Of a stretch of 64,000 nucleotides of DNA, positions 3,388 through 34,095 are shown one piece after another (within the stretch, counting starts at the first letter, position 1; each line of letters begins with the position of its first letter). Both the position numbers and the translations under genes were made by a program. This DNA comes from Escherichia coli (GTDB lineage: Bacteria; Pseudomonadota; Gammaproteobacteria; Enterobacterales; Enterobacteriaceae). The notes beneath the pieces were generated by a model, which worked only from the letters and a program-made list of their open reading frames with translations, was not told the DNA's origin and made no database searches. The DNA is taken from assembly GCF_013315695.1 (NCBI RefSeq), contig NZ_CP054353.1. One strand, given 5' to 3'.

Positions 3388-3608
3388 TCCGGAATATTTT
3401 CAAACGGTTTACCAATCATACTTTCCGTTGTCCTCGTCCGGGTCAGTGGTACACCACGCCTGCAGGGCATGTTCTACGTGTTAGCCTGGTTGACCGTGAA
3501 TGTCAGAAGGTGATTTGTGAACCGCTGGGCCGTAATTACCGCGTCAGTATGCCGCTTATAGCCTTTCGCTCCGGAAAAAACATGAAGCATCTCGGAGGTG
3601 CTGCATGA
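3384..3608 (+). CDS. Small hypothetical protein (74 aa) sharing its first 22 nt with the Rha copy-2 start
   Basis: Starts ATGATCCGGAATATTTTCAAAC, identical to 2506-2527; ATGA overlap with the Rha copy-2 stop and with the downstream replication gene start. Confidence 0.4.
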   Translation: MIRNIFKRFTNHTFRCPRPGQWYTTPAGHVLRVSLVDRECQKVICEPLGRNYRVSMPLIAFRSGKNMKHLGGAA

Positions 3609-4423
3609 GTATGGAGTTGATGGTTAAAGCGATGAAAATTCGAGTGGGAAATCCATTGCGAAAACTGGTTCTGATTAAGCTGGCTGATAATGCCAGCGAT
3701 CAGGGTGAGTGCTGGCCCAGCTACCAGCATATTGCTGACCAGTGCGAGATTAGCAAACGTTCTGTGATGAATCATATTGCGGCCCTTTGTGAGTCCGGGC
3801 TGGTAAAAAAAGTCACCCGGAAAGGTGAAAAAGGTAACTCAAGTAATATCTATCTCCTTCATCTTGATGGTGCAGGAGATTCACTAGGGGGTAGTGCAAA
3901 TAATTCACTATCTGGTGCAGCAAATTCACCAGGTAGTGCAGGAGTTGCACCAGGGGGTAGTGCAGGAGATTCACCCAGAACCAGTCACTCTTTTGAACCA
4001 GTCAAAGAACCAGTCAATGAACCAATAGCTGTTGGTGCATCTGCTGATGAGTCTGTGCGAGTTCGTTCAAACCGACCGGAATACTCTCCGGAGTTTGAGC
4101 AGGCATGGCTGGCCTATCCAAAACGTGCTGGTGGCAATTCAAAATCTGCAGCCTTCAAAGCCTGGAAAGCCCGTTTGAATGAGGGGGTAAACCCCGAAAC
4201 CATGCTGGAAGGTGTGAAACGCTACGCGGGCTGGGTATCTGCGATGGGTAACAGCGGCACACAATTTGTGAAACAGGCTGTCACGTTCTTTGGCCCGGAT
4301 CGTCATTTCGAAGAATCCTGGGAAGTTCCTGCGGTATCTGCAGTCAGACGCGAGGACCCGTACTTCAAAGCCAGTTACGACAACGTGGACTACAGCCAGA
4401 TCCCGGAAGGATTCAGGGGGTGA
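3605..4423 (+). CDS. Phage replication initiation / replisome-organizer-like protein with N-terminal winged HTH
   Basis: 272 aa; N-terminus MSMELMVKAMKIRVGNPLRKLVLIKLADNASDQGECWPSYQHIADQCEISKRSVMNHIAAL; internal iteron-like DNA repeats; position after the cII/rha block. Confidence 0.6.
   Translation: MSMELMVKAMKIRVGNPLRKLVLIKLADNASDQGECWPSYQHIADQCEISKRSVMNHIAALCESGLVKKVTRKGEKGNSSNIYLLHLDGAGDSLGGSANNSLSGAANSPGSAGVAPGGSAGDSPRTSHSFEPVKEPVNEPIAVGASADESVRVRSNRPEYSPEFEQAWLAYPKRAGGNSKSAAFKAWKARLNEGVNPETMLEGVKRYAGWVSAMGNSGTQFVKQAVTFFGPDRHFEESWEVPAVSAVRREDPYFKASYDNVDYSQIPEGFRG
3865..3985 (+). repeat. Iteron-like direct repeats inside the replication gene (candidate ori)
   Basis: Repeated motifs GGTGCAGGAGATTCAC (x2), AGGGGGTAGTGCA (x2), GGTGCAGCAAATTCACC, AGGTAGTGCAGGAG; encode a G/S/A-rich linker GGSANNSLSGAANSPGSAGVAPGGSAGDSP. 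Confidence 0.5.
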
Positions 4424-4914
4424 TCATGAGTCTTTTGAATGAAGTTCAGAAATTCATTGAAGCCCATCCGGGCTGTACTTCCGGAGACATTGCGGATGCT
4501 TTTGCTGGTTACTCACGGCAGCGCGTTCTGCAGTCAGCAAGCAAGTTACGTCAGAGTGGGCGTGTGGCTCACCGTTGTGAAGGAGATACACGCAGACATT
4601 TCCCACGCCTGACTGAGAGAGCGCAGGATCCGGAACCACAACCAGTTCGTGAAACCAGACCTGTGCGCAATTTCTATGTCGGCACTAACGATCCCCGTGT
4701 GATTTTGTGCCTGACCCGCCAGGCTGAAGAACTGGAGTCCAGGGGCTTATACCGTCGTGCTGCAACGGTGTGGATGGCGGCATTCCGTGAAAGCCACTCC
4801 CAGCCAGAACGAAACAATTTTCTGGCACGTCGTGAGCGGTGCTTACGGAAAAGCAGCAAGCGCGCTGCATCGGGTGAAGAGTGGTATCTGTCAGGGAATT
4901 TCGTGGGGGCTTAA
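4420..4914 (+). CDS. Hypothetical protein with PerC/Pch-like C-terminal motif
   Basis: 164 aa; C-terminal LESRGLYRRAATVWMAAF...RRERCL resembles the PerC-family GLWRRAA..W...RR..C signature; ATGA-coupled to neighbours. Confidence 0.45.
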   Translation: MIMSLLNEVQKFIEAHPGCTSGDIADAFAGYSRQRVLQSASKLRQSGRVAHRCEGDTRRHFPRLTERAQDPEPQPVRETRPVRNFYVGTNDPRVILCLTRQAEELESRGLYRRAATVWMAAFRESHSQPERNNFLARRERCLRKSSKRAASGEEWYLSGNFVGA

Positions 4915-5890: not shown

Positions 5891-6282
5891 AGCTAATACT
5901 GCCTTTTCCGCCCAGCGTGAACACGTACTGGCGACACCCCAACAAAGGGGCGTTTGCTGGTAAGAGCCTGATAAGCGCGGCGGGGCGAAAATTCCAGAGC
6001 GCGGCGTGTGCAGCAATAGTTGAGCAGTTACGTCGTCTGCCGAAACCAACGTCGGCACCTGCTTCAGTGGAGATCGTGTTGTTTCCTCCGGATAACCGGA
6101 TCCGCGATCTGGACAACTATAACAAGGCGCTGTTTGACGCCCTGACCCACGCGGGTGTGTGGGAAGACGACAGTCAGGTGAAAAGAATGCTGGTGGAGTG
6201 GGGACCGGTTATCCCGGAGGGGAAGGTCGAGATCACTATCAGTAAGTACGAAAAAGCGAGTTGCAAATTAGCAACTCGGTAA
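5887..6282 (+). CDS. rusA: RusA Holliday-junction resolvase
   Basis: 131 aa; characteristic DLDNYNKALFDALTHAGVWEDDSQV; ATGA coupling. Confidence 0.85.
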   Translation: MKLILPFPPSVNTYWRHPNKGAFAGKSLISAAGRKFQSAACAAIVEQLRRLPKPTSAPASVEIVLFPPDNRIRDLDNYNKALFDALTHAGVWEDDSQVKRMLVEWGPVIPEGKVEITISKYEKASCKLATR

Positions 6283-11433: not shown

Positions 11434-13395
11434 ATGGCATTTAAACACTATGACGTGGTCAGGGCGGCATCGCCGTCAGACCTTGCGAAACGACTGACAC
11501 AAAAACTGAAGGAGGGGTGGCAGCCATTTGGCAGTCCGGTGGCCATCACGCCTTATACCCTGATGCAGGCCATTGCGGCGGAAGGTGATGTCACCACACC
11601 TGTGGTGGTGAAGCCGTCGGATGGAGAAGGCGCAGTTATCAGCAACACCAGCAACCCGGAGTATTACTTTGTTGTTGCCCTGGCCGGGCAGTCAAACGGT
11701 ATGGCGTATGGTGAAGGGCTTCCGCTGCCGGAGACATATGACCGTCCGGACCCGCGTATTAAACAGCTGGCGCGTCGCAGCACTGTCACGCCGGGTGGTG
11801 CGTCCTGTAACTACAATGACATTATTCCTGCGGACCACTGCCTGCATGATGTTCAGGATTTGAGTAAGTTTTCACACCCGAAAGCCAGCGCAGCTCAGTA
11901 TGGATGCGTGGGGCAGGGATTACATATCGCGAAGAAATTGTTGCCGTTTATTCCGGCGAATGCCGGTATTCTTCTGGTTCCGTGCTGCCGTGGTGGTTCT
12001 GCATTTTTGGCGGGCGATGAAGGTACCTTCAGCGAATCCACCGGCGCAAGCGAGACCTCGGCACGCTGGGGTGTAGATAAGCCACTGTACAAGGACCTGC
12101 TTACCCGTACTCAGGCCGCACTGAAGGCCAACCCTAAAAATATTCTGCTTGCAGTGGTCTGGATGCAGGGCGAGTTTGATTTGAAACAGGGTGCATACGC
12201 CACTCAGCCGGGGCTGTTTGATTCCATGGTGGAAAAATATCGTTCTGACCTGTCGGAATTCGGAGGTCAGTGTCTCGGGGGCTCTCCGTCATCAGTTCCC
12301 TGGATTTGTGGCGACACGACCTACTACTGGAAGCAGACTTATTCTTCGCAATACGATGCGGTGTATGGTGCATATAAGACGAAATCCGCAAAAAAAATCT
12401 TCTTTGTGCCGTTTATGACGGATGAAAACGGGCGAAATGTGGGTACCAACGAGCCGTCAGAAGATCCGGATGTTGCGGATATTGGGTATTACGGAGCCGG
12501 TGGTCGAACGGACGCCAAAACCTGGACGACGGCTGACCGTAAAACGCATTTTGGATCATGGGCACGTCGTGGGATTATTTCCGACCGTCTGGCAACGGCG
12601 ATTCTTGTGCATGCCGGGAGAACCGCTGAATTCATTACCGGAAAACAGCCTGATACGGTGAAGCCCACCGGACCTTCCGGTGAAGGTACGGAGAGAGAGC
12701 CGGAAGGTCCGGTCAGTAACCGAACCCTGATGAGTCTGCTGGCGTCCGGCGAAGACCTGGCATCACAGGGCTGGCGCTATTATCACAAACCGGCGAGCGG
12801 AGACAATGTTAACAAAAACATTGCTGAAGCGGTGGTCAGTGATGCGGGGGCTACGGGAGGTAAGGCCCTGCAACTGAATAAACCGGAAAACCACATCTGG
12901 TTTCTGGAGCATGATGCAGCCGGGCAGGGGGCAGAGTTGCTGAAGAAAGGAGGACGTGTGAGCGTACGGTTTAAGTTGCCGGGTTCACTGGTGCCGAATC
13001 AGTTTGCCCTGGGCATTTACTGGCAGTTGTCGTCCCTGCCGGAGGGAGTGACGCTGGCAGAGGAAGGCAACGACATGCTGATGTCCTTCTTTCTGCAGAC
13101 GGATGCGACGAACCTGAACGCGATGCACCACAAGAAGCCGAATGCGAAGCTGGAAACGTTCGGGGTCTTTGATAACGGATGGCACACACTGGCTTTTGAG
13201 TTTGCCGGAAACAACAGCATTCAGGTGACGCCGGTACTGGATGAGAAACGGGGGACGCCGTTCACACTGGTGAAATCTCCGGCATCAGGGGCGGCGGACA
13301 AACTGCAACTGACAGGCATATCAAAGGCGGCGACATATACGCTGCTGATTGACAGTGTGAAGGTGGAAGTGAACAACGCGGATGCCGCGGCATGA
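11434..13395 (+). CDS. nanS: Prophage 9-O-acetyl-sialate esterase NanS-p (DUF1737 plus SASA/SGNH esterase)
   Basis: 653 aa; N-terminus MAFKHYDVVRAASPSDLAKRL (DUF1737); esterase motif YYFVVALAGQSNGMAYGE; sits where Stx phages carry nanS-p downstream of stx. Confidence 0.85.
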   Translation: MAFKHYDVVRAASPSDLAKRLTQKLKEGWQPFGSPVAITPYTLMQAIAAEGDVTTPVVVKPSDGEGAVISNTSNPEYYFVVALAGQSNGMAYGEGLPLPETYDRPDPRIKQLARRSTVTPGGASCNYNDIIPADHCLHDVQDLSKFSHPKASAAQYGCVGQGLHIAKKLLPFIPANAGILLVPCCRGGSAFLAGDEGTFSESTGASETSARWGVDKPLYKDLLTRTQAALKANPKNILLAVVWMQGEFDLKQGAYATQPGLFDSMVEKYRSDLSEFGGQCLGGSPSSVPWICGDTTYYWKQTYSSQYDAVYGAYKTKSAKKIFFVPFMTDENGRNVGTNEPSEDPDVADIGYYGAGGRTDAKTWTTADRKTHFGSWARRGIISDRLATAILVHAGRTAEFITGKQPDTVKPTGPSGEGTEREPEGPVSNRTLMSLLASGEDLASQGWRYYHKPASGDNVNKNIAEAVVSDAGATGGKALQLNKPENHIWFLEHDAAGQGAELLKKGGRVSVRFKLPGSLVPNQFALGIYWQLSSLPEGVTLAEEGNDMLMSFFLQTDATNLNAMHHKKPNAKLETFGVFDNGWHTLAFEFAGNNSIQVTPVLDEKRGTPFTLVKSPASGAADKLQLTGISKAATYTLLIDSVKVEVNNADAAA

Positions 13396-13546
13396 TAAAA
13401 AAAGGCCGCCAGCAATGAAGGAAAGGGATGAACTGTGTCCACTACATGAATGCTGGCGGCTGGTAAAACGACCACGATGACACCGAAGTTTGCGATATTT
13501 TTCTACAAAAATAAGTAAATCATGTCAACTATCACGGTGAGAAACC

Positions 13547-13729
13547 ATGACATTTCTGAACCAGTTAATGCTGTACTTCTGTACGGCAGTCTGTGTTATG
13601 TATCTTCTTTCGGGTGGGTACAGGGCAGTGCGCGATTTCTGGCGCAGGCAGATTGATAAAAGGGCCGCTGAGAGAATCAGCGCCAGTCAGTCAGCCGGAA
13701 GCAAACCCGAAGATCCGCTCATTCCGTAG
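13547..13729 (+). CDS. Small hypothetical membrane protein (60 aa)
   Basis: One hydrophobic helix LMLYFCTAVCVMYLLSGG then a basic tail; weak RBS; low confidence. Confidence 0.3.
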   Translation: MTFLNQLMLYFCTAVCVMYLLSGGYRAVRDFWRRQIDKRAAERISASQSAGSKPEDPLIP

Positions 13730-13766
13730 TCACTTTCTTGACAACACCTTTCAACGAGAAAATCCC

Positions 13767-14036
13767 ATGTCAGAAATCACATCCCTGGTCACTGCTGAGG
13801 CAGTGAAGGAAGTCCTGCGCTCTGAAGAAGTCCTGAGCGCACTGAAACAGAAACTCCGCCAGAACCTTGAGGCGCGTCTTGATGCAGAAGTGGATGCCAT
13901 TCTGGATGAGCTGCTGGGCGTACCAGCGGTTCCGGAGCCGGAAGGCATTGCGGATGACAGTACTGTTTCAGATGGCGTCGGGTCTCAGCCTGACGGTAGT
14001 GAAGAGCCTCAGCCTGACGGCGAAATGATGATGTAA
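13767..14036 (+). CDS. Small acidic hypothetical protein (89 aa)
   Basis: ATG 13767 inside the longer ORF-track call; acidic C-terminus ...DGSEEPQPDGEMMM; between nanS-p and the holin. Confidence 0.4.
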   Translation: MSEITSLVTAEAVKEVLRSEEVLSALKQKLRQNLEARLDAEVDAILDELLGVPAVPEPEGIADDSTVSDGVGSQPDGSEEPQPDGEMMM

Positions 14037-14111
14037 CCATGCGCAGGGGGTGTCGGTGTGAGCTGATGCCCCACTTGTTGTTGTGAGCTTCCGGATTGCG
14101 GGAGACGGGGT

Positions 14112-14327
14112 ATGTACCAGATGGAAAAAATCACAACAGGTGTGTCATACACCACGTCAGCGGTGGGAACGGGCTACTGGTTCCTGCAGTTGCTGGACAG
14201 GGTTTCCCCGTCTCAGTGGGCGGCAATAGGCGTGCTGGGGAGTCTGCTGTTTGGGCTGCTGACATATCTGACTAACCTGTATTTCAAAATCAGAGAGGAC
14301 CGGCGTAAGGCGGCGCGGGGAGAGTAA
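14112..14327 (+). CDS. Holin, phage 21 S-type (pinholin-like) with dual-start motif
   Basis: 71 aa; MYQMEK... dual Met start; ...[51 protein letters not shown] closely resembles S21. Confidence 0.85.
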
Positions 14328-14331
14328 AGTG

Positions 14332-14682
14332 ATGAATAAAAAATATGAACTGGTTGTTAAGGGGATAAATAATTACGGGGATAAGGTTACTGTTACTGTG
14401 AAGCCGGAAGGTGACGGGCAAGCGTCGCTGTTGTTGCCAGATGTGGCGATTAGTCTTGACCGTACTGAAGGTGCCACGCTGGAGTTTTACGAAGCTGAGG
14501 CGAAAAAGCAGGCGAAGCAGTTTTTCATGGATGTTGCTGCCGGGTTATGTGAAGGGGATGGTCCGTTGCCGGAAAAGCGCCCCGTAATTTTAGAGGCGCA
14601 GGATGTGTTGATAACCTACAAAGGAAAGCTACCGGGAAGAATTACTGGTTCTCTGAAGACTCCACCGGAATCACAACCTTAA
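14332..14682 (+). CDS. Hypothetical protein (116 aa) inserted between holin and endolysin
   Basis: ATG 14332 after GGGGAGAG; soluble, no known motif; unusual position inside the lysis cassette. Confidence 0.5.
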   Translation: MNKKYELVVKGINNYGDKVTVTVKPEGDGQASLLLPDVAISLDRTEGATLEFYEAEAKKQAKQFFMDVAAGLCEGDGPLPEKRPVILEAQDVLITYKGKLPGRITGSLKTPPESQP

Positions 14683-14745
14683 TTCACTGACCGGAACAGA
14701 TAAACCTGTCCGTGGGCAGAAACCGATAAATCCTGATAAATATCC

Positions 14746-15279
14746 ATGAACGCAAAAATCAGATACGGCCTGTCGGCTGCCGTTCTGGCGCTGATTGCCG
14801 CAGGTGCGCCTGCGCCTGACATTCTCGACCAGTTTCTGGATGAAAAGGAAGGTAACCACACCACGGCATACCGTGATGGTGCGGGTATCTGGACTATCTG
14901 CCGCGGTGCCATCCTGGTGGATGGCAAACCTGTCGTTCCGGGCATGAAGTTGTCGAAGGAAAAATGCGACCAGGTTAACGCCATTGAGCGTGATAAAGCG
15001 CTGGCGTGGGTGGAGAAAAACATCAGAGTGCCGCTGACCGAACCCCAGAAAGCGGGGATCGCGTCATTCTGTCCGTACAACATTGGTCCCGGTAAGTGTT
15101 TCCCGTCGACGTTTTATAAACGAATTAATGCAGGTGATCGCAGGGGAGCGTGTGAGGCGATTCGCTGGTGGATTAAGGACGGTGGCAGAGACTGCCGTAT
15201 CCGCTCAAACAACTGTTATGGTCAGGTATCCCGTCGTGACCAGGAGAGCGCGCTGGCGTGCTGGGGAATCGACAGATAA
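14746..15279 (+). CDS. SAR endolysin (phage 21 R-type lysozyme, GH24)
   Basis: 177 aa; N-terminal signal-anchor LSAAVLALIAAGAPAP; lysozyme motifs EGNHTTAYRDGAGIWTICRGA and YNIGPGKCFPSTFYKRINAGD. Confidence 0.85.
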   Translation: MNAKIRYGLSAAVLALIAAGAPAPDILDQFLDEKEGNHTTAYRDGAGIWTICRGAILVDGKPVVPGMKLSKEKCDQVNAIERDKALAWVEKNIRVPLTEPQKAGIASFCPYNIGPGKCFPSTFYKRINAGDRRGACEAIRWWIKDGGRDCRIRSNNCYGQVSRRDQESALACWGIDR

Positions 15280-15438
15280 GCAGAATATTTTGCTGAAAAA
15301 TAAGGCATGGCCACGCGGGCGGATAACACGAAATCCTGCGAACTGGCGAAACGTAAGTGAATAAAAGTAAAAACCCCGTTTGTTGGCACCAAGCGGGGTT
15401 TTGTGTTTCCTGACTCCGGAAAAGTCAAAGGAGAAAGT

Positions 15439-15576
15439 GTGTTTGATTTTAGCAAACTGATTCGGGAGATTCGAGTGATGGCTGAAAAATTATCCACCTG
15501 GAAGTTCATTCTTATCTGGCTGGTGTTTGTGATTATGGCCTCCGGTTATTTCATCGGTCAGATACGCTGGTGGTGA
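15439..15576 (+). CDS. Small hypothetical membrane protein (45 aa, GTG start) between endolysin and Rz
   Basis: AAGGAG RBS 6 nt before GTG 15439; hydrophobic core WKFILIWLVFVIMASGYFIG; stop 1 nt before the Rz start. Confidence 0.3.
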   Translation: MFDFSKLIREIRVMAEKLSTWKFILIWLVFVIMASGYFIGQIRWW

Positions 15577-15577
15577 A

Positions 15578-16015
15578 ATGAACCGCGTACTGTGCGTGGT
15601 CATCATTGCCCTGCTGGTGGCCTGTGGTGCGCTTAGTCTGGGGCTGAATCATTACCGTGATAACGCCATGACCTACAAAGAGCAGCGCGATAAAGCCACA
15701 TCCATCATCGCTGATATGCAGAAGCGTCAACGTGATGTAGCAGAACTCGACGCCAGATACACAAAGGAGCTTGCTGATGCTAACGCGACTATCGAAAGTC
15801 TCCGTGCTGATGTTTCTGCTGGTCGTAAGCGCCTGCAAGTCGCCGCCACCTGTGCAAAGTCAACGACCGGAGCCAGCAGCATGGGCGATGGAGAAAGCCC
15901 AAGACTTACAGCAGATGCTGAACTCAATTATTACCGTCTCCGAAGTGGAATCGACAAGATAACCGCGCAGGTTAACTACCTGCAGGAATACATCAGGACG
16001 CAATGCCTGAAATAA
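15578..16015 (+). CDS. Rz i-spanin
   Basis: 145 aa; N-terminal TM then coiled-coil; embedded Rz1 in the +1 frame. Confidence 0.8.
   Translation: MNRVLCVVIIALLVACGALSLGLNHYRDNAMTYKEQRDKATSIIADMQKRQRDVAELDARYTKELADANATIESLRADVSAGRKRLQVAATCAKSTTGASSMGDGESPRLTADAELNYYRLRSGIDKITAQVNYLQEYIRTQCLK
15771..15962 (+). CDS. Rz1 o-spanin lipoprotein (embedded in Rz)
   Basis: Lipobox LLVVSAC followed by a Pro-rich stretch KSPPPVQSQRPEP; wholly inside Rz in another frame. Confidence 0.7.
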   Translation: MLMLTRLSKVSVLMFLLVVSACKSPPPVQSQRPEPAAWAMEKAQDLQQMLNSIITVSEVESTR

Positions 16016-16216
16016 TTTTTTTGCAAATCACAAAGTCAATTTAATGAGCCTCGCGATGCGGGGCTTTTTGCAATAAATGCGTACCGCAACGCATGTTTTT
16101 TACACCGAACCTGCCCCTTTGGAATGGGCCTTTGAGGATACCAGTTAGTGCTGGCGAGCCTCGGTGGGCTGGTTTCCTATGCGGCAAAGGTTCATTTCAA
16201 ATGGTAGGTAAACGTT

Positions 16217-16738
16217 ATGAATATCGTGCCACTTAATTACAAAGGTGAAATTGTCAGTTTCAACACTGATGGTTGGATCAACGTCACAGGTGTTGCTGAG
16301 AGATTTGGAAAACGCATTGATAACTGGATGCGTTTGGCAGAAACGCTTGAATACGTTCGTGCTTTAGACGAAGCGTTGACCGGGAAAGAATCTCAAATTT
16401 TACATCCCTCACAATCGAGGTATGTAAAAACCAGCAAGGCACGAAAGGACAGGGGTGGTGGTACGTGGCTACATCCAAAACTTTCAGTTGCATTTGCCCG
16501 TTGGTGTGATGCTCGTTTTGCTGTGTGGTGCGACCTGCACATTGATAGTCTGCTTCGCGGTGAACTGACTGAGCAGCAGAAATATGAGCAAGCATGTCGC
16601 ATTCGCGATGACCGGAAATCAAAAGCCAGCAATGGGGCAAGAGAGATGGCTCGCTGGCGATGGGATAAGCCGGTTATTGAAGCAAATGTTGAGTACTGGC
16701 GCGAGCAACTGCAGTTGACTCTCGATATCGCGTGCTGA
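16217..16738 (+). CDS. KilA-N domain protein (second copy in this prophage)
   Basis: 173 aa; GGTWLHPKLSVAFARWCDARFAVWCDLHI is the KilA-N core. Confidence 0.55.
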   Translation: MNIVPLNYKGEIVSFNTDGWINVTGVAERFGKRIDNWMRLAETLEYVRALDEALTGKESQILHPSQSRYVKTSKARKDRGGGTWLHPKLSVAFARWCDARFAVWCDLHIDSLLRGELTEQQKYEQACRIRDDRKSKASNGAREMARWRWDKPVIEANVEYWREQLQLTLDIAC

Positions 16739-17446
16739 TGGCAAACGCAAAACTGCGTTATCGGAAAAATCAAAGCATTACGAGAACTGAGCAACGGCTA
16801 TCCATTACAAAGCCCATCTACGGGTGGGCTTGATAATGAAACCGGAATTTATTCTTGGCAACCAGTTACGGCAGTACCACGAAACAACCCAAGCCAGTAA
16901 GTGGGGAAATAACACTGGCAGCCACTGAAAGATGAAGCTCCTGCCTTAAGGCAAAAAAGATTCTTTGTGGTGGCGGACTGATGGAAAGACATCGGTTATT
17001 GCAGAGGCCATTCAATGAGTGGTCTCGACAATGGCTTATACCCTACACGGGATAACTTAACTGATATCCCTTTTAAAGGATAAAGGTATTCAAGCCTGAC
17101 ACATCATGCGCTGTATCGTCGCCGTATTCCTGCATTAACAGAGACCGCAGCCCGACAGGGAGACTCCTCTGCGCGAGTGTGCGGGGATAATCAAAAACGA
17201 TACACACCGGGGTTTACCGCGTTAACGGAGCGCGGCGTTGTCCCCTCATAGTCGCCTGTCCGGTGCGATGGTGGAAGAAACCGGATGTTTATCACTATTA
17301 ATTGATGACACAGAAATGGATTCATTGAATTTCAGCACGTTTTTGTATTCGTGTTATTGAACATCTGTTTATTTTACTTTTAACATATTGATAATAAAAA
17401 GAGCTGTAAATCTTTAGATGAGTCGATTTTGTCCGGGGAAGTTCAA

Positions 17447-17587
17447 ATGGATTTTATGCTGACGGTTTCTGGTGTGGTTATCCTGTCCATTGCTTATACT
17501 GCAGATAAATATGGCTGCCATTTGTTATCACGTATTGGCGCTTATTGTTCGTTGATGCTGATTTTCTCGTCGCTTTTTTTTGAGTAA
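17447..17587 (+). CDS. Small hydrophobic peptide (46 aa), candidate only
   Basis: MDFMLTVSGVVILSIAYTADKYGCHLLSRIGAYCSLMLIFSSLFFE; AT-rich island; convergent with the RHH gene; weak RBS. Confidence 0.2.
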   Translation: MDFMLTVSGVVILSIAYTADKYGCHLLSRIGAYCSLMLIFSSLFFE

Positions 17588-33752: not shown

Positions 33753-33961
33753 AAAGAATAAAAAAATCCCGCAGTGATCGCGGACAGGAACTGCGGGAGA
33801 GTTACGAAGATTAAGTGTAAGGAATTATTCTTATATCACGACAAAAAAATTAACGCAGAGAAATTATACGCGCCACAGTCAGTTTGTGAAAATGTGAAGA
33901 TATTCAGAATTTTTATGCCATTACCGGTTTTAACCAACAGGATTATCGGTGGGCATGAAAG

Positions 33962-33993
33962 AAAACCCCGGTATCTGCTGATACCGGGGTTTC
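33962..33993. terminator. Strong bidirectional hairpin in the I-J spacer
   Basis: AAAACCCCGGTATC-TGCT-GATACCGGGGTTTC (10-13 bp stem), T-rich downstream and A-rich upstream. Confidence 0.5.
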
Positions 33994-34095
33994 TCTTTAG
34001 CATGGCAGAAATGTGTTTCATGCTTTTCGGGCGAAGGATATCCGACTTCTGTACGGAATGGCAAGTGGCGGTTAATTTATTCAGGGGAAGGCTGT

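Follow-up and report, generated by a model that had tools for sequence, protein, structure and literature searches.

We analysed a 64,000-nucleotide stretch of Escherichia coli DNA (contig NZ_CP054353.1 of assembly GCF_013315695.1; hereafter the window) and found that a 45-codon open reading frame (ORF), located between the endolysin gene R and the spanin gene Rz of a phage lysis cassette, is a real gene and belongs to a mobile accessory cassette (Table 1). The ORF is preceded by a leader of two hairpins that covaries across its family, and position-specific constraints act inside the ORF at the nucleotide level. That this is a real gene within a mobile, leader-bearing cassette we regard as at the very least highly probable. 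Read as a whole, the sequence features would fit a tightly gated membrane peptide resembling the toxin in toxin-antitoxin (TA) systems of type I, with presumed toxicity, a presumed biological role, putative antisense transcription and two putative protein isoforms; we give this reading a probability of about one half.

A first-pass annotation had proposed a small membrane-peptide gene with a strong ribosome-binding site (RBS) at this position. Its boundaries, plus-strand orientation, length of 45 codons and GTG start were confirmed from the sequence and the list of ORFs (translation, VFDFSKLIREIRVMAEKLSTWKFILIWLVFVIMASGYFIGQIRWW). The peptide matches PHROG 6632, a PHROG of unknown function, over its full length (E=6.4e-30, residues 1-45 against profile positions 1-45 of 45), and a profile search of 1.84 billion cluster representatives returned 58 clusters at E<=1e-3, mostly of 42-57 amino acids (aa), a few of the representatives being shorter or longer gene calls. 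The cluster consensus reads x-D-[FI]-S-K-[LI]-I-R-E-[LIV]-R-x-M-x-E-K-L-[SP]-x-W-[KR]-F, followed by a transmembrane (TM) helix and frequently by an RWW end. In a codon alignment of 26 diverse copies, the ratio of nonsynonymous to synonymous substitution rates (dN/dS) was 0.11-0.58 at unsaturated dS; the ORF is under purifying selection and substitutions follow a period-3 pattern across the family. Residues 3-13 are kept at the amino-acid level amid free synonymous and conservative change, which argues that translation from the upstream GTG, TTG or ATG is real and, with the PHROG match, the clusters and dN/dS, bears out the claim of a conserved single-TM peptide gene beginning at the GTG. No frame disruption was found among about 130 retrieved copies. 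The short length, the non-ATG start and the missing annotation in many records would suit a chance ORF, but that explanation is refuted by the deep, diverged family, the period-3 pattern and the intact frames, and we consider it next to impossible.

The identical ORF is called by PGAP in some genomes (WP_000459345.1, ‘hypothetical protein’, in E. coli S88) and omitted in others. It is a direct member of PHROG 6632 and of this accession, entries that give neither function nor leader and make no connection with sister families. Most phage records leave the ORF without annotation, among them that of H-19B, which, like other Shiga toxin (Stx) phages, carries it, in this case as a 100% identical copy. 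The 301-nt region 15280-15580 is present in 2059 of 5426 complete E. coli genomes, with at least 80% of the region covered in 870. Homologous DNA was found in the Salmonella phages SPN3UB and SEN34, in the Pseudomonas phage YMC11/02/R656 and in genomes of Citrobacter, Yersinia, Sodalis, Pantoea, Providencia, Trabulsiella, Pseudomonas and Aquitalea; a scan of viral contigs with a mixed alignment gave near-identical E. coli copies only. A 98% identical ORF of the E. coli type with its leader also occurs on a 1274-bp contig binned as a Collinsella metagenome-assembled genome (locus L097, JAIJJM010000840.1) and is most likely a binning contaminant. The peptide is absent from the small-gene ribosome-profiling supplements for enterohaemorrhagic E. 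coli (EHEC) Sakai.

Hydropathy places one TM segment at about residues 21-41, in line with the single segment claimed before, and an AlphaFold2 model based on a 33-sequence alignment has helices at residues 4-17 and 20-44 (mean predicted local distance difference test score 84). The N-terminal helix is amphipathic and positively charged, and the C-terminus is QIRWW. Pfam returned only a 13-bit chance match, NCBIfam and PADLOC contained no family for the peptide, none of the known toxin families (Hok/Gef, Ldr, Ibs, TisB, ShoB, DinQ, ZorO and others) was matched, and neither was a holin family profile in Pfam, NCBIfam or PHROGs. Only 4-5 residues follow the TM helix and the peptide has no Cys, so it has neither the lipobox nor the periplasmic coiled-coil of a spanin. 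A 57-aa extension to an in-frame GTG at 15403 was rejected, since this start would fall within the T-run of the terminator hairpin and has no conserved counterpart.

The placement between endolysin and Rz was correct, the upstream neighbour being an endolysin of the signal-anchor-release (SAR) type, but the implied role as a component of the lysis cassette did not hold up. Homologous Rz or R adjoins only the E. coli, SPN3UB, Citrobacter and Providencia copies; the consistent linkage to endolysin expected of a holin is missing, the remaining homologues lying in tail, baseplate or TA contexts. The SEN34, Pantoea and Yersinia copies sit between baseplate genes V and W, one P2-like contig has its copy between the tail tube gene and gene E, lambda-like prophages of Pseudomonas and enterobacteria have theirs among tail genes K/I/J, and the Sodalis copy directly follows a tail-fibre gene. 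Other copies adjoin ParE, RelB/YafQ, HicAB, PrlF/YhaV or HigA modules, and further ones lie beside SIR2/WYL/AAA defence genes near an integrase. In Qin, R overlaps Rz and the junction is empty, with no gap, and other lambdoid phages carry different cargo there; Qin, SEN34 and the alternative cargo show the presence or absence between conserved flanking genes of related phages that is characteristic of a moron. This spread over lysis, baseplate, tail and TA or defence settings is that of a mobile accessory cassette, not of a part of the lysis machinery. The first-pass annotation had treated absence from close relatives as evidence against the gene: many relatives do lack it, whereas all copies retrieved by protein-based searches are intact and conserved, a combination typical of accessory cassettes. 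The family ORF is often trailed by more small TM ORFs (loci L003, 3671-3787, and L113, 3280-3456), and at L113 the next of them has its own copy of the leader, so that tandem arrays of small membrane-peptide genes are formed.

The leader was found, with the same elements in the same order, ahead of the ORF in 29 of 31 diverse family loci: an AAAAG(C/T)AAAA motif (AAAAGCAAAA-like), a GC-rich hairpin with an A-run and a T-run (hairpin 1), UUUC(C/U), a second hairpin (hairpin 2) and the start codon, which is usually GTG or TTG. The 3' arm of hairpin 2 runs into the Shine-Dalgarno sequence (SD). In the predicted fold of the window's copy, an anti-SD UUUCCU (15406-15411) pairs with AGGAGA (15429-15434), with an inner stem GACU/AGUC. 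The AAGGAG noted earlier is present, at 5 nt from the GTG instead of the 6 nt given; as for the strength ascribed to the RBS, the SD exists, but because it is predicted to be paired in hairpin 2, a conserved and covarying hairpin behind an intrinsic terminator, the RBS would be masked rather than freely strong.

Helix 1 has 13 pairs, with 96.6% of cells paired and compensatory changes at 8 pairs, and helix 2 has 10 pairs, with two-sided changes at 8; the inner stem of hairpin 2 takes different forms by lineage (CCUUG/CAAGG, GACU/AGUC, CAUG/CAUG, CCUUCUG/CAGAAGG). In 29 leaders realigned to a covariance model (R1), 91.5% of cells are paired (80% after shuffling of columns, and no more than 55% in controls with partners slid by 1-3 columns), and two-sided compensatory change occurs at 16 of 23 leader pairs; the realignment was fitted to the model, so these counts are biased toward structure, but the slid controls still lie far lower and single-sequence folds agree. 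RNAalifold on a plain MAFFT alignment recovered hairpin 1 only, hairpin 2 requiring the covariance-model realignment. With regard to the strand, helix 1 has 18 G-U wobbles, which pair on the plus strand only, against 2 A-C, which pair on the minus strand only, the corresponding counts for helix 2 being 10 and 18; in single-sequence folds, enterobacterial leaders are more stable on the plus strand and Pseudomonas-type leaders on the minus strand. This balance would fit a bidirectional terminator serving convergent transcripts.

No Rfam family was found at the leader on either strand (window 13000-17500 and six related loci), and the isrK covariance model gave no match at E<=1 in 13000-17500 or at E<=0.5 in the six related loci. 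Sub-threshold scores for the Rfam rimP-leader on the minus strand (24.7 and 30.5 bits against a gathering score of 47, at 15360-15435 of the window and at 2856-2997 of locus L005) probably reflect a generic resemblance of terminator, hairpin and U-tract. A promoter scan found no plus-strand promoter-like site in 14000-16300. A second R1 match in the window, at 33955-34015 (27 bits), was rejected as a cassette: it is a terminator with a GC hairpin (AAAACCCCGGTATC...GATACCGGGGTTT), and no small TM ORF follows.

Within the ORF, the 26 diverse copies have frozen codons close to the start. Asp3 is GAT in 18/18 copies, Asp elsewhere in the same genes being GAC nine times and GAT once; Phe4 is TTT in 14/14, compared with 34 TTT and 22 TTC at other Phe positions; and Ser5 is always AGC (23/23). 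Codons 7-9 and the third base of Lys6 are free to vary. Replacements at codons 3-4 mostly retain xAT and xTT, and even GC-rich Pseudomonas copies use the AT-rich GAT/TTT/ATT/AGC. Read on the minus strand, codons 3-6 give TG-C-TAAnAT, a predicted extended -10 element whose variable base is where the hexamer carries least information; the same strand has a weak -35 (TCGAAT) at 15474-15469. A minus-strand -10 hexamer with at least 5/6 matches is found in 21 of 28 modules, compared with 10.5% of 427 control ORF starts in the same loci, and the family copy at locus L110, which has no hairpins, has no -10 either. A further promoter-like site on the minus strand (15561..15532) was rejected, its -10 not being conserved in homologues.

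From the geometry of this promoter and the terminator, an antisense transcript would start near A15440 or A15438, cover the start codon and the RBS and end at hairpin 1. The predicted RNA would consist of a 5' tail complementary to the start codon and spacer, an anti-SD, hairpin 2', hairpin 1' and a U-tail (UUUUUACUUUU); it folds at -23.2 kcal/mol (z=-3.06), with its first 8 nt unpaired.

A second set of frozen codons lies further into the ORF. Glu10 is GAG in 26/26 copies, while GAA dominates at Glu16, and codon 14 is ATG in 25/26, so that in the target family an SD-like motif stands 8-10 nt before an in-frame ATG. Across all cargo families, 24 of 26 modules have such an ATG at codon 12-18, mostly with GGAG, GAGG or AGGA 6-12 nt upstream. 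This suggests a nested product of 32 aa made from the codon-14 ATG. A fold of 15362-15480 pairs UUUCCUGA with UCGGGAGA, and the GGGAG at codons 9-10 may be a decoy partner of the anti-SD, instead of or besides an internal SD.

The two putative starts bear on the view that the peptide is a dedicated lysis accessory: expressed along with the late genes, it would regulate the pinholin/SAR-endolysin pair in the manner of an antiholin or holin and tune lysis timing through dual-start isoforms. Dual starts are known from holins and antiholins such as lambda S107/S105 and S21 71/68, where the longer form has an extra N-terminal positive charge. Like these, the window's gene encodes a small membrane protein in a lysis cassette, with two putative in-frame starts and a longer form that would be more positive at its N-terminus; unlike them, its starts would be 13 codons apart and not 1-3, it has one TM helix and no charged C-terminal tail, and the family lies mostly outside lysis cassettes and matches no holin family. 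A lysis role would also explain the location between R and Rz in a late operon, which is the same in Salmonella SPN3UB, Citrobacter and Providencia, as well as the single TM helix and the resemblance of the nested starts to holin dual-start motifs. We nevertheless consider it quite unlikely, given that most of the diverged homologues are found outside lysis cassettes, that many lambdoid relatives have no ORF or other cargo at the junction, that a class II holin is already encoded upstream, and that nothing in Pfam or PHROG ties the peptide to holins.

The R1 leader is not confined to this family: at least nine ORFs that encode 51-60 aa and a single TM helix also have it upstream. Most of these fall into other PHROGs without known function, phrog_1115/4493 and phrog_12997 among them; one (locus L134, 2923) is a distant member of PHROG 6632 (E=1.5e-5), and two had little or no match. 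Several end in AIRWW/VIRWW or GNLPWDxLL, as the target family does. An in-frame ATG at codon 12-18 with an upstream SD-like motif was present in 7 of 8 such ORFs checked, and a minus-strand match of at least 5/6 to TATAAT in 8 of 8, with the 3' end of the hexamer at +4 to +13 from the start codon (10.5% in the 427 controls); the eight hexamers are TATACT (three times), TATAAT, TACAAT, TATCAT, TG-C-TATTAT and TAAAAT.

Table 1. Coordinates of the cassette features and neighbouring genes in the window.
Feature	Position	Strand	Basis
Small ORF, long form, 45 aa, GTG start	15439..15576	+	Sequence, PHROG 6632, clusters, dN/dS, AlphaFold2
Shine-Dalgarno AAGGAG	15428..15433	+	5 nt before GTG, sequence
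Whole leader, covariance model R1	15362..15441	+	76.4 bits, E=5e-18
Hairpin 1, intrinsic terminator with A-run/T-run, bidirectional in appearance	15370..15402	.	13-bp stem, T-rich tail
Hairpin 2, RBS-masking (predicted)	15406..15434	+	Minimum free energy folds, covariation
Predicted extended -10 promoter TGCTAAAAT	15446..15454 (15454 down to 15446)	-	Complement of GAT TTT AGC A
Predicted cis-antisense RNA, ~75 nt	15364..15440	-	Promoter and terminator geometry
GGGAG at codons 9-10, SD-like for internal ATG and/or decoy for anti-SD UUUCC	15464..15468	+	Codon usage, fold
Possible nested short form, 32 aa (MAEKLSTWKF...IRWW)	15478..15576	+	In-frame ATG at codon 14
Class II holin	14112-14327		
YdfR-family ORF	14329-14682		
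Endolysin R, lysozyme with N-terminal SAR-like segment	14746..15279	+	ORF list; ‘lysozyme’ in E. coli S88 annotation
Rz (i-spanin)	15578..16015	+	ORF list; ‘lysis protein’ in S88; Rz and Rz1 annotated in SPN3UB
Rz1, embedded in Rz gene	15771-15962		
KilA-N gene, downstream of Rz	16217-16738		

With these elements in place, the type I TA-like reading can be set out as a mechanism. The peptide would be a small bitopic inner-membrane peptide, and its cassette inserts into late-operon gaps of temperate phages of Gamma- and Betaproteobacteria, the gap here being the R-Rz junction. The cassette would consist of an intrinsic terminator insulating the ORF from upstream transcription, a hairpin hiding the RBS, the ORF itself, usually with a weak GTG or TTG start and a nested internal SD and ATG, and an opposite-strand extended -10 in codons 3-6 that would yield an antisense RNA of about 75 nt ending at the same terminator. 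Such triple gating by terminator, masked RBS with weak start and antisense RNA would be needed because the peptide is, as we presume, membrane-active and harmful, and product would be made only if strong late transcription outruns termination, masking and the antisense RNA, or if the antisense RNA decays. In lambda, Q-modified polymerase reads through terminators late in infection. A Q-antiterminated polymerase would likewise read through hairpin 1 at this stage, and the peptide would appear together with holin and endolysin; it may then perturb or depolarise the inner membrane and so help to trigger lysis by the pinholin and SAR endolysin, or abort superinfection. In the lysogen, the antisense RNA would keep the peptide silent, and loss of this RNA on superinfection could release the peptide, following a logic of the hok/sok type.

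Several traits of type I toxins are present, namely a length below 60 aa, one TM helix, non-ATG starts, a predicted masked RBS and neighbours with TA and defence functions. Other points weigh against the proposed mechanism. AT-rich N-terminal codons are able to mimic -10 hexamers, and the frozen GAG and ATG are left unexplained by an opposite-strand promoter. The eight R1-led ORFs represent about three independent N-terminal types, so that 8/8 overstates the case and its weight is nearer 10^-3 to 10^-4 than 10^-8. The wobbles of helix 1 (18 against 2) favour the plus strand and a terminator tuned for the sense RNA, so termination of the antisense RNA at hairpin 1 is presumptive. As no plus-strand promoter was found, the ORF relies on transcription passing through its own terminator upstream, something unusual among type I systems. 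Pfam, NCBIfam and PADLOC gave no homology to a known type I toxin, and a literature search, in which coverage of subscription papers was thin, found no publication on the peptide, its accession, the PHROG identifier, the hairpin sequence or the C-terminal motifs.

Among known systems, the closest functional analogues may be type I TA loci with 5'-overlapping antisense RNAs (symE/SymR, hok/Sok-mok), including hokW-sokW. The SymR antisense RNA starts near the start codon of symE, and the predicted antisense RNA would do the same here. In common with type I loci, the cassette has a small hydrophobic ORF of fewer than 60 aa and an RBS predicted to be masked by mRNA structure, and its nested upstream start recalls the coupling of mok and hok. 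It is prophage-borne, like hokW-sokW, a type I TA system of the Sakai prophage Sp5 (PMC8621323), and other TA genes are among its neighbours. Unlike type I systems, it has no homology to a toxin family and no dedicated toxin promoter was found; the terminator of the putative antisense RNA would lie upstream of the RBS of the putative toxin and double as a sense-strand terminator.

In terms of architecture, the nearest analogue would be isrK-orf45-anrP of Gifsy-1, in which a terminator of the small RNA (sRNA) type is read through into a 45-codon ORF whose peptide is not conserved (PMC4825925). A stop codon abutting the next start is shared between the two, as would be terminator read-through, an RBS held in a hairpin and alternative RNA structures. 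The 45-aa peptide, unlike orf45, is conserved, and its position in the phage genome differs; moreover, IsrK acts in trans from the same strand, while the regulator of the cassette would be a cis-antisense RNA. Homology to IsrK/orf45 was rejected in view of the missing Rfam match, and the locus is kept as a mechanistic analogue only. It provides the model for a further explanation, in which the ORF would be a translated leader or upstream ORF serving translational coupling to Rz, as orf45 does to anrP behind the IsrK terminator. The order of terminator and 45-codon ORF mirrors isrK-orf45-anrP (PMC4825925), the stop TGA (15574-15576) is separated by a single base (15577) from the Rz ATG at 15578, and the RWW codons create GGUGGUGA just upstream. 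Coupling to Rz is very unlikely, however, as dN/dS stays below 1 where the ORF lies beside unrelated downstream genes, a convergent gene or nothing, as the 45-aa peptide is conserved, unlike the reported orf45 protein, and as Rfam gives no IsrK match.

The insertion pattern is also that of morons, a concept reportedly introduced by Juhala et al. in 2000. Like morons, the cassette lies inserted among conserved late genes, is missing in close relatives and has moved horizontally between unrelated phages. Classical morons consist of promoter, gene and terminator (PMC3594210), unlike the present cassette, where the terminator is upstream, Rz follows 1 nt after the ORF and the sole promoter-like element found points the opposite way. 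The peptide could be a non-toxic moron protein for lysogenic conversion or superinfection exclusion (like HK97 gp15), the opposite-strand -10 being incidental or otherwise used. Such a role would agree with the insertion polymorphism, with the tail and baseplate gaps, which are like those of known exclusion morons, and with the defence genes among the neighbours. The lack of a plus-strand promoter in our scan and the location of the terminator upstream, not downstream, are at odds with it, the masked RBS and non-ATG starts argue for repression and not for constitutive expression in the lysogen, and the frozen synonymous sites would still need an explanation; we therefore see an exclusion moron as unlikely. 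A precedent for an antisense RNA with exclusion function in a prophage late operon is STnc6030 (PMC7067206). The sRNA family with a conserved 3' end in the EHEC Hfq-CRAC paper is a different family from the leader RNA. Overall, the cassette falls outside the known type I toxin families, holins, spanins, classical morons with their promoter/terminator layout, and IsrK.

The genes around the ORF form a phage-21-type lysis cassette, and the near-identical region of E. coli S88 has the same RefSeq annotation. The R-Rz junction is a cargo hot spot across lambdoid phages. In PhiR12_2 (locus L094, 2657-2985), the same leader is followed by a 60-aa TM ORF (phrog_1115) and a 43-aa TM ORF (phrog_4906), and in Stx2 phages (L093, 4672-4806; L095, 2651-2785) the junction contains Ant and a related 44-aa TM ORF ending just before Rz. 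In more than 300 phage records, the roughly 95 nt directly behind the endolysin stop (15280-15374) are 84-92% identical irrespective of the cargo that comes next (the 45-codon ORF, Ant, an IS629 insertion or other small ORFs); this stretch may be a junction or recombination segment or a 3' untranslated region element. At locus L089, an element of about 400 nt just upstream of the terminase genes is duplicated (3590-3985, 4300-4700) and comprises the promoter-like TTTACA-17-TATCAT, a first terminator, about 200 nt and the leader. Behind one copy stands the family ORF, behind the other a different ORF of 58 aa ending in IRWW, and a third copy of the leader is found at 6149-6231; the element may be a late-promoter/terminator unit.

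Related layouts were seen nearby and in other phages. Upstream of the KilA-N gene (16020-16236), a 47-codon ORF (16093-16236) overlapping the KilA-N start comes after two terminator-like hairpins (16047-16075 and 16077-16094), a layout recalling isrK-orf45-anrP, with no Rfam isrK match at E<=1. A similar leader (CCTTGAGGATACC...GGTTCAT) precedes ant in a Stx2 II phage (L095, 1960-2068). SPN3UB (L005, 2735-2845) has an unannotated hydrophobic ORF of 36 aa (MSKRDVSALCFLMAAAVAISGNDGWGWLIFAGIIIL), the ATG of which overlaps the endolysin stop and which has no counterpart in the window. At locus L086 (5130-5218, minus strand), Rfam sRNA-Xcc1 was matched with 63.3 bits (gathering score 53) immediately upstream of a Bro-N gene in a moron island of the tail region.

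More tentatively, we propose that PHROG 6632 and its sister families (phrog_1115/4493, 12997 and others) may form an unrecognised superfamily of RNA-gated, two-strand membrane-peptide cassettes, with cargo exchangeable behind a common leader, which would represent a new class of type I TA systems timing lysis or aborting superinfection; this broader proposal is possible but less probable than the type I TA-like reading of the single locus. For genome annotation, it matters that most phage records miss the gene and none has the putative RNA. If the proposal is true, one stretch of DNA would be under two constraints at once, as coding sequence and as opposite-strand promoter. About one-sixth of complete E. 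coli genomes would then carry, within late operons, an unannotated toxin-like peptide gated by RNA, and so would the classic Stx phages (H-19B and many Stx1a/Stx2c phages) as well as Salmonella and Pseudomonas phages; this would have a bearing on lysis timing, and hence on Shiga-toxin release, as well as on abortive infection by prophages.

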